Below, piece by piece: positions 20,926 through 22,226 of a stretch of DNA of 64,000 nucleotides. The notes below the pieces were generated by a model that did no database searches, was not told where the DNA came from, and worked only from the letters and a program-made list of their open reading frames with translations. Origin of the DNA: Alphaproteobacteria bacterium HGW-Alphaproteobacteria-4 (lineage in GTDB: Bacteria > Pseudomonadota > Alphaproteobacteria > Rhodobacterales > Rhodobacteraceae); contig PHEE01000007.1 in NCBI GenBank assembly GCA_002842855.1, positions 1,139 through 65,138 on the forward strand, given 5' to 3'. Position 1 is the first letter of the stretch, and every line of letters starts with the position of its first letter. A program made the translations under genes and the position numbers.

Positions 20926-22226
20926 ATGAAGTATCAATCGCAAAAGGTCGCTCTGGCCTACTTTGCCACCGCGATGGCGCTCTTTGCCGTGCAGGTCAGC
21001 CTTGGGCTGATCATGGGCTGGGTCTATGTCGATGGCGGTTTCCTGGCCGAAATCCTGCCGGCGCCGCCTATTACCTGATCCCCGAGGAATCCGAGCGCGA
21101 GATCCACTCGACCAAACTTGCCTATCTGCAACTGGCGATTCTGGTGCTGGGCACGGCGGGCGTGGTCGTGACCTACAGCTTCAACCTGTTCGAGGGCAAT
21201 TTCCTGCTCGGGCGCGAGGGCCGCGAGTTTCTGGAACAGCCGCGCTGGGTCAAGGCCGGAATCGTGGTTGCCGCGCTGATCTTCCTGTTCAACGTCTCGA
21301 TGACGGTGCTCAAGGGCAAGAAATCCGCGATCACCAACATTCTGCTGCTCGGCCTCTGGGGGCTGGCGTTGTTGTTCCTGTTCGCGTTCTACAACCCCGG
21401 CAACCTTGCGCTCGACAAGCAATACTGGTGGTTCGTCGTGCACCTCTGGGTCGAGGGCGTGTGGGAACTGATCATGGCCTCGATTCTGGCCTATCTGATG
21501 CTGAAGCTGACAGGGGTTGACCGCGAGGTGGTGGAAAAGTGGCTTTACGTCATTGTCGCCACCGCGCTTTTCTCGGGTATCCTGGGCACCGGGCACCATT
21601 ATTACTGGATCGGCACCCCCGGTTATTGGCAGTGGCTCGGCTCGGTCTTCTCCTCGCTTGAGGTGATCCCGTTCTTTGCGATGATGGCCTTTGCCTTCGT
21701 GATGGTCTGGAAAGGCCGCCGCGATCACCCGAACAAGGCGGCGCTGCTGTGGAGCCTCGGTTGCGCCACACTGGCCTTCTTCGGGGCCGGGGTCTGGGGT
21801 TTTCTGCACACCCTGCACGGGGTCAACTTCTATACCCACGGCACCCAGATCACCGCGGCGCACGGCCACCTTGCCTTCTACGGCGCCTATGTCTGCGTCA
21901 ACCTTGCGATCATCACCTATGCGATGCCGGTGCTTCTGGGGCGTGACCCCTACAACCAGGTGCTGAACATGGCCTCGTTCTGGCTGATGTCGTCGGGCAT
22001 GGTGTTCATGACCGTGACACTGACCTTCGCGGGCGCCTTGCAGACCCACCTGCAACGGGTGAACGGCGAAGCTTTCATGGGCGTGCAAGACCAGCTCTGG
22101 ATCTTCTTCGTGATGCGCTTTGGCGCCGGGGCGGCGGTGGTGATCGGCGCCTTGCTGTTCATCTACTCTATTCTGGTGCCACGGCGCGAGGTCATCGCGC
22201 GCGGCTCCTCGATGCCGGCCGAATGA
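20926..22226 (+). pseudogene. norB: Nitric oxide reductase subunit B, disrupted by a short internal deletion and frameshift near 21060
   Basis: Frame 1 reads [45 protein letters not shown] and then stops at 21076-21078. NorB homology resumes in another frame at about 21060 with [17 protein letters not shown]...LGTAGVVV... and runs to 22226. The conserved segment containing the RM(L/V)HTN heme-b histidine is missing. Confidence 0.85.

Follow-up and report, generated by a model that had tools for sequence, protein, structure and literature searches.

The window, the whole stretch of DNA analysed here, comprises 64,000 nucleotides (positions 1139-65138 of contig C58) of a 3.15-Mb genome assembled in 59 contigs, hereafter G000. 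It carries the operon norC-norB-norQ-norD on the forward strand beside nirS, the usual order for cNOR systems. The gene for cytochrome cd1 nitrite reductase, nirS, is intact on the reverse strand (18481-20334). On the forward strand, norC (20460-20912) is an intact gene of 150 amino acids (22 public contigs encode exactly this product), and norQ (22223-23041) is likewise intact at 272 amino acids. norB, which lies between them, is recorded as two fragments, and norD (23038-24814, forward strand) is broken in two places.

The surroundings of nirS merit a brief description. The interval between nirS and a BKACE gene holds a Crp/FNR-type regulator of 242 amino acids with cNMP_binding and HTH_Crp_2 domains (region of window 17269-18087; L155 882-1610), the place at which one expects a denitrification regulator of the NnrR/Dnr kind, and an 89-amino-acid ORF that belongs to no family. 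Across the window's genome, the cytochrome d1 propeller family PF02239 matches nirS alone, with no nirF or nirN paralogue, and the flanks of nirS contain no heme d1 biosynthesis genes. Either the missing ~7% of the genome contains these genes, or the cofactor pathway of the nitrite reductase is lacking here. Farther along the window, two intergenic palindromes rich in GC, each ~50-75 nt long, lie at 31177-31228 and 40607-40680. Copies with 80-96% identity occur on both strands at dozens of sites in all four same-genus genomes; aragorn finds no tRNA at them, and they are REP-like elements.

As recorded, norB begins with an ATG at 20926, and its 5' frame is open through ...GGFLAEILP, the last codon of which, ccg, occupies 21058-21060. 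Beyond this proline (P45) the frame reads APPIT and stops at 21076-21078, so that the 5' fragment (20926-21078, forward strand) consists of 45 true codons followed by 5 out-of-frame codons and a stop. A second frame (21060-22226, forward strand; product P0001) runs from base 21060 for 388 codons to a stop at 22224-22226. The sequence across the junction (21059-21060, forward strand; positional ambiguity 1 nt) is ...GAAATCCTGCCGGCGCCGCCTAT... The original prediction had described norB as normal up to GGFLAEILP at 21060 and as resuming from the same base in another frame, with the remaining 388 codons free of further lesions. Both frames read in this way, and the second is open to 22226. The 433 norB codons are otherwise free of lesions, as are nirS, norC and norQ. 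The nir-nor cluster, ~7 kb in all, contains neither stops nor frameshifts of 1-2 nt; every lesion belongs to the same class of dropout.

Alignment to orthologous DNA, the route originally proposed for sizing the loss, yields a clean gap of 64 nt in the window against three relatives from the family, in which the frame is continuous; the gap falls between CTGCC and GGCGCC. Exactly 21 codons, FNVARMLHTNSLIVWLLLGFF, and one base are absent. This bears out the earlier estimate of about 20 missing residues that include the FNxxRMLHTN...WLLLGF helix, as well as the claim that the missing length is not divisible by three. A motif scan located NorB in 73 of 80 loci from named genomes, the gene not being located in the remaining seven. 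All 73 have a continuous frame and, between LP and GAAY, 21 residues of the form F(N/S)xxRM(L/I)H(T/S)N(S/A)LxxW(L/I)xxGF(F/M). Against the Roseobacter NorB structure (PDB 4xyd_A), the C-terminal part of the window's protein aligns to residues 67-452 only (E 3.3e-216). In cNOR enzymes, the axial histidine of heme b comes from the second transmembrane helix (TM2). The window's genome contains a single copy of norB, and what the record lacks is the TM2 segment with the RM(L)H(T/S)N histidine.

Four further junctions in the window have the same character. The BKACE gene lacks 79 nt at 17117-17118 (forward strand). norD changes frame near 23441-23460, where exactly 128 nt are missing by comparison with the NorD of relatives (junction at 23457-23460), and it lacks another 105 nt in its tail at 24799/24800. 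At 48952-48953, 149 nt are absent; with them go the spacer between the convergent genes uvrD and rsmJ/rlmJ and the 3' end of each.

We reached independent contigs of the same organism by exact-sequence look-up of the window's NorC, NorQ, MurF and two other proteins. A search for homologous proteins returned no NorB above 89% identity, and the near-identical contigs came only through exact look-up of neighbouring proteins. Identity to a window protein also led to Logan contigs of runs SRR3546455 and SRR3546457, the former with 99.4% DNA identity. The most informative is Ga0246100_100205 (84.7 kb; JGI metagenome 3300029891), which matches window 4517-47289 with one mismatch in ~42.8 kb. It is 100.000% identical over 4517-17117, 17117-21060, 23457-24799, 24800-25004 and 26126-47289, and its sole mismatch lies within 21060-23460. 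This contig contains additional sequence at four places: 79 nt at 17117 in the BKACE gene, 64 nt at 21059/60 in norB, 128 nt at 23457-60 in norD and 105 nt at 24799/800 in the norD tail. The overlaps at these four junctions are 1, 1, 4 and 0 nt. The 64 nt absent from norB in the window, GTTCAACGTGGCGCGGATGCTGCACACCAACAGCCTGATCGTCTGGCTTTTGCTGGGCTTCTTT, stand between positions 16623 and 16687 of the JGI contig (L173). Its norB is intact at 454 amino acids (P0122), and residues 1-452 align to 4xyd_A 1-452 (E 4.8e-249). The BKACE gene is 310 amino acids long in this contig, and norD is an intact gene of 653 amino acids in the JGI and ENA contigs.

Eight contigs from seven samples extend past the norB site (ENA ERZ27239239/42/43/44; JGI 3300038336, 3300029891 and 3300029821; NCBI GCA_017973775.1), and 8/8 call a norB of 454 amino acids. 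The seven besides Ga0246100_100205, from six other samples, are 97-99.9% identical to the window. Independent data from one strain would repeat the lesion of a true pseudogene, yet this one is absent from every one of these contigs. The 149 nt missing at 48952/3 are likewise present in three contigs of 99% identity, colinear with the window to 64000, in which the ends of uvrD and rsmJ are restored. When metagenome contigs were scanned for the junction 24-mer and the intact pyrG flank there was no match, in a collection said to omit the records nearest the window's genome.

Because the otherwise identical JGI contig has the TM2 segment, its absence is very probably a fault of the record and not of the organism. 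The original prediction had called the event recent or artefactual, and had named restoration of the missing segment by new sequence as the sign of an artefact. The artefactual half of that statement is borne out: an independent assembly, otherwise identical, contains the 64 nt and an intact 454-amino-acid norB, which comes close to a restoration by resequencing, and on this ground the norB loss is almost certainly artefactual. A real deletion of a heme ligand in the organism, which the wording of the prediction implied, is unsupported given the intact gene in that contig.

The losses are not confined to the window. Aligning 753 kb of a sister species, G004 (~88% identity), to G000, and requiring both 40-nt gap flanks to be at least 75% identical, we counted 15 clean losses in G000 and one in the opposite direction, whereas small indels between the two genomes are symmetric. 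The 15 losses measure 59, 73, 78, 96, 97, 99, 106, 107, 111, 112, 125, 131, 143, 191 and 218 nt. The lost segments have ordinary GC content, with little or no microhomology at the junctions. They fall in conserved genes whatever their importance, including a cyclase, an ABC ATPase, an AcrB-type pump, uvrD, ruvA and pyrG; further sites are the start of a COQ9-like gene, the upstream region of hslU and the 5' end of hemJ. In pyrG, the single-copy gene for CTP synthase, 33 amino acids are lost, among them the GGTVGDIE motif. Dropouts outside the window include C35:80985 (pyrG), C11:59471 (hemJ), C36:36546 (ruvA), C43:10037, C46:67210 and C42:19981, and each of those in pyrG, hemJ, ruvA, the cyclase, the ABC ATPase, the AcrB-type pump and other genes would read as a pseudogene. 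One cell would hardly carry all these lesions together. The asymmetry of 15 to 1 and the loss of the pyrG motif mark a genome-wide class of loss that is specific to this assembly and blind to essentiality. The estimated completeness of G000 is 92.9%, against 97-99% for same-genus genomes.

The gaps that the assembly does declare point the same way. Three runs of N are kept in G000 (77, 31 and 56 N). The 56-N run corresponds to 187 nt in all four same-genus genomes, the 31-N run to ~225 nt, and the 77-N run to 129-231 nt, depending on the relative; the sizes of the three were underestimated by roughly 50-190 nt. With gaps undersized by this amount, true gaps shorter than ~200 nt would therefore be estimated at zero or less and joined without N. 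Joins of this kind, predicted for gaps below ~200 nt, fit the observed loss sizes of 59-218 nt.

From these comparisons we consider it very probable that the genome assembly is in error at norB and that the organism itself has not lost the 64 nt. In all likelihood the record represents a metagenome-assembled genome (MAG) built as scaffolds. A scaffolder or gap closer may have underestimated gaps by roughly 50-190 nt, such that short ones came out as zero, and contigs parted by a short unassembled stretch (~60-220 nt) would then have been joined end to end without N. The software step that butt-joined the contig ends is one that we infer. The window's four other junctions have the same explanation as norB.

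Why a contig should have ended within norB can be addressed more directly. Other assemblies break there too: one contig from each of two further samples (L161 and L162) stops here, at positions equivalent to window 21054 and 21006. Among public contigs, strain-variable sites rise from ~1 to 7-13 per 100 nt, beginning with the 100-nt bin in which the 64-nt segment lies. Such a rise is the signature of an assembly-graph branch at which assemblers stop; probably, co-occurring strains begin to differ exactly at the norB break and create such a branch. In public contigs from sister samples, the variation hot spot covers window 21060-21400 (L173 16600-16900), and the identity of contigs L163 and L164 falls within norB from 99.3-99.9% upstream to 97.3-97.7% downstream. 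This drop suggests recombination between co-occurring strains inside the gene. The density of dropouts, four within the 7.7 kb of the nir-nor region against a genome average of ~1 per 50 kb, needs a local cause. Strain variation accounts directly for the break in norB and is documented there only, not at the other three nir-nor breaks.

Several other causes of the losses were considered and rejected. The lengths of 64 and 128 nt raised the possibility of a 64-base block artefact on a 64-nt grid, but the norD junction at 23457-60 is off the grid and the other losses measure 79, 105, 149 and 59-218 nt. Loss of coverage driven by GC content does not apply to segments averaging ~62% GC in a genome of 64.9%, and slippage between direct repeats is not indicated by junction overlaps of 1, 1, 4 and 0 nt, which are no more than chance. 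A reference-free frameshift scan based on codon statistics was also set aside, since a frameshift cannot be told apart from an ordinary gene boundary when out-of-frame tails are short and GTG/TTG codons frequent.

The main rival to an assembly error draws on the genus itself. The same-genus genomes G001-G004 have no norB at the DNA level, and loss of nor is a real trend: G004 retains a relic of the norD 3' end that is 95% identical to window 24646-24798. Of the window's five dropouts, three are in norB and norD. A population or clone could carry the 64-nt out-of-frame deletion as a true inactivation of norB within a genus-wide loss of nor. We regard this as very unlikely, because four deletions with essentially no accompanying substitutions are implausible when a contig with all four segments differs from the window by one mismatch in ~42.8 kb. 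Losses of the same kind deprive pyrG, present in one copy, of its catalytic motif, hemJ of its start and ruvA of a part, which together would be lethal or severely deleterious; and the 15-to-1 asymmetry against the sister species, the undersized N-gaps and the lack of small lesions anywhere in the cluster speak against it as well. A variant of this idea invokes a clonal sub-lineage whose defective repair makes it prone to deletions, and in which dozens of real deletions of 60-220 nt accumulated with almost no substitutions, the MAG representing this lineage and the JGI contig an intact sibling. The 3' end of uvrD and ruvA are themselves among the dropout targets; even so, we find this reading more doubtful still.

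Readings that accept the junction as functional or as copied from elsewhere deserve almost no credence. The two open frames, overlapping at one base, are all that would recommend a ribosome that shifts frame or bypasses the junction, or a truncated NorB able to work without the helix. The missing 21 residues form a transmembrane helix in all 73 NorB genes located among the 80 loci, as well as in the two cNOR structures that have been solved, and it is this helix that provides heme b with its axial histidine; DNA of the same strain exists with the segment in place, and no slippery site or hairpin is apparent on reading the junction by eye. Ectopic templated repair, in which the junction would have been copied from an unrelated gene, was raised by a stretch of G004 (C31 63138-63167) that matches window 21044-21072 at 29/30 positions across the junction. 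We judge it just as improbable, given that the orthologue of that gene in the window's own genome (C35:91834) differs at many positions in this stretch and that the junction is flanked left and right by native norB sequence. Chance similarity between two GC-rich coding stretches that both encode LAEILPAP is the best reading of the match. An assembly error is the reading that we prefer over all of these.

Comparison with known systems is consistent with this preference. The window's fragments, together with the intact 454-amino-acid version, align end to end with 4xyd_A among the solved cNOR NorB chains (4xyd, Roseobacter denitrificans; 3o0r, Pseudomonas aeruginosa). Similarity to the solved chains extends over the full length, and public relatives carry PF00115 (COX1, heme-copper oxidase superfamily). 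Relative to cNOR NorB, neither the window nor the intact protein shows any sign of a new enzyme variant; the one difference, 21 codons and 1 nt missing from TM helix 2, is found in this record only and is very probably an artefact. The losses resemble the misassemblies of scaffolded drafts and MAGs in being ~60-220 nt long, in having little or no microhomology, in falling anywhere relative to genes, in being absent from independent assemblies of the same DNA and in occurring beside N-gaps that understate the true gap. They differ in their four-fold clustering in the nir-nor region, which strain variation at norB explains only in part. Decay of denitrification genes has a parallel in the genus relatives without nor and the one with a norD relic. 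Real decay, however, brings mixed lesions (stops, 1-nt indels, large deletions) and divergence, whereas the window shows the genome-wide dropout class alone, with flanks identical to the intact copy.

The relic in G004 is informative in its own right. It is an 88-codon ORF corresponding to the norD 3' end (L114 10213-10479; G004:C4 18213-18479), with its 95% identity to the window extending over 153 nt, and it adjoins a tRNA gene, secE and nusG. Because G004 has this relic and no nor cluster, the cluster is ancestral in the genus and was really lost in G004.

Extrapolating from 15 losses in 753 kb, the assembly would contain roughly 60 silent dropouts of 59-218 nt. The record is unfit for calling pseudogenes, and reads or the independent contigs should be consulted before an internal deletion or frameshift in it is accepted. 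The organism itself most likely has a normal cNOR-type NorB of 454 amino acids, with the TM2 histidine H53 in RMLHTN. Taken at face value, the record would instead depict a nirS nitrite reducer unable to detoxify NO, with odd pseudogenes in norD, BKACE, uvrD, pyrG and ruvA, and such a reading would distort metabolic inference for the species that it represents.
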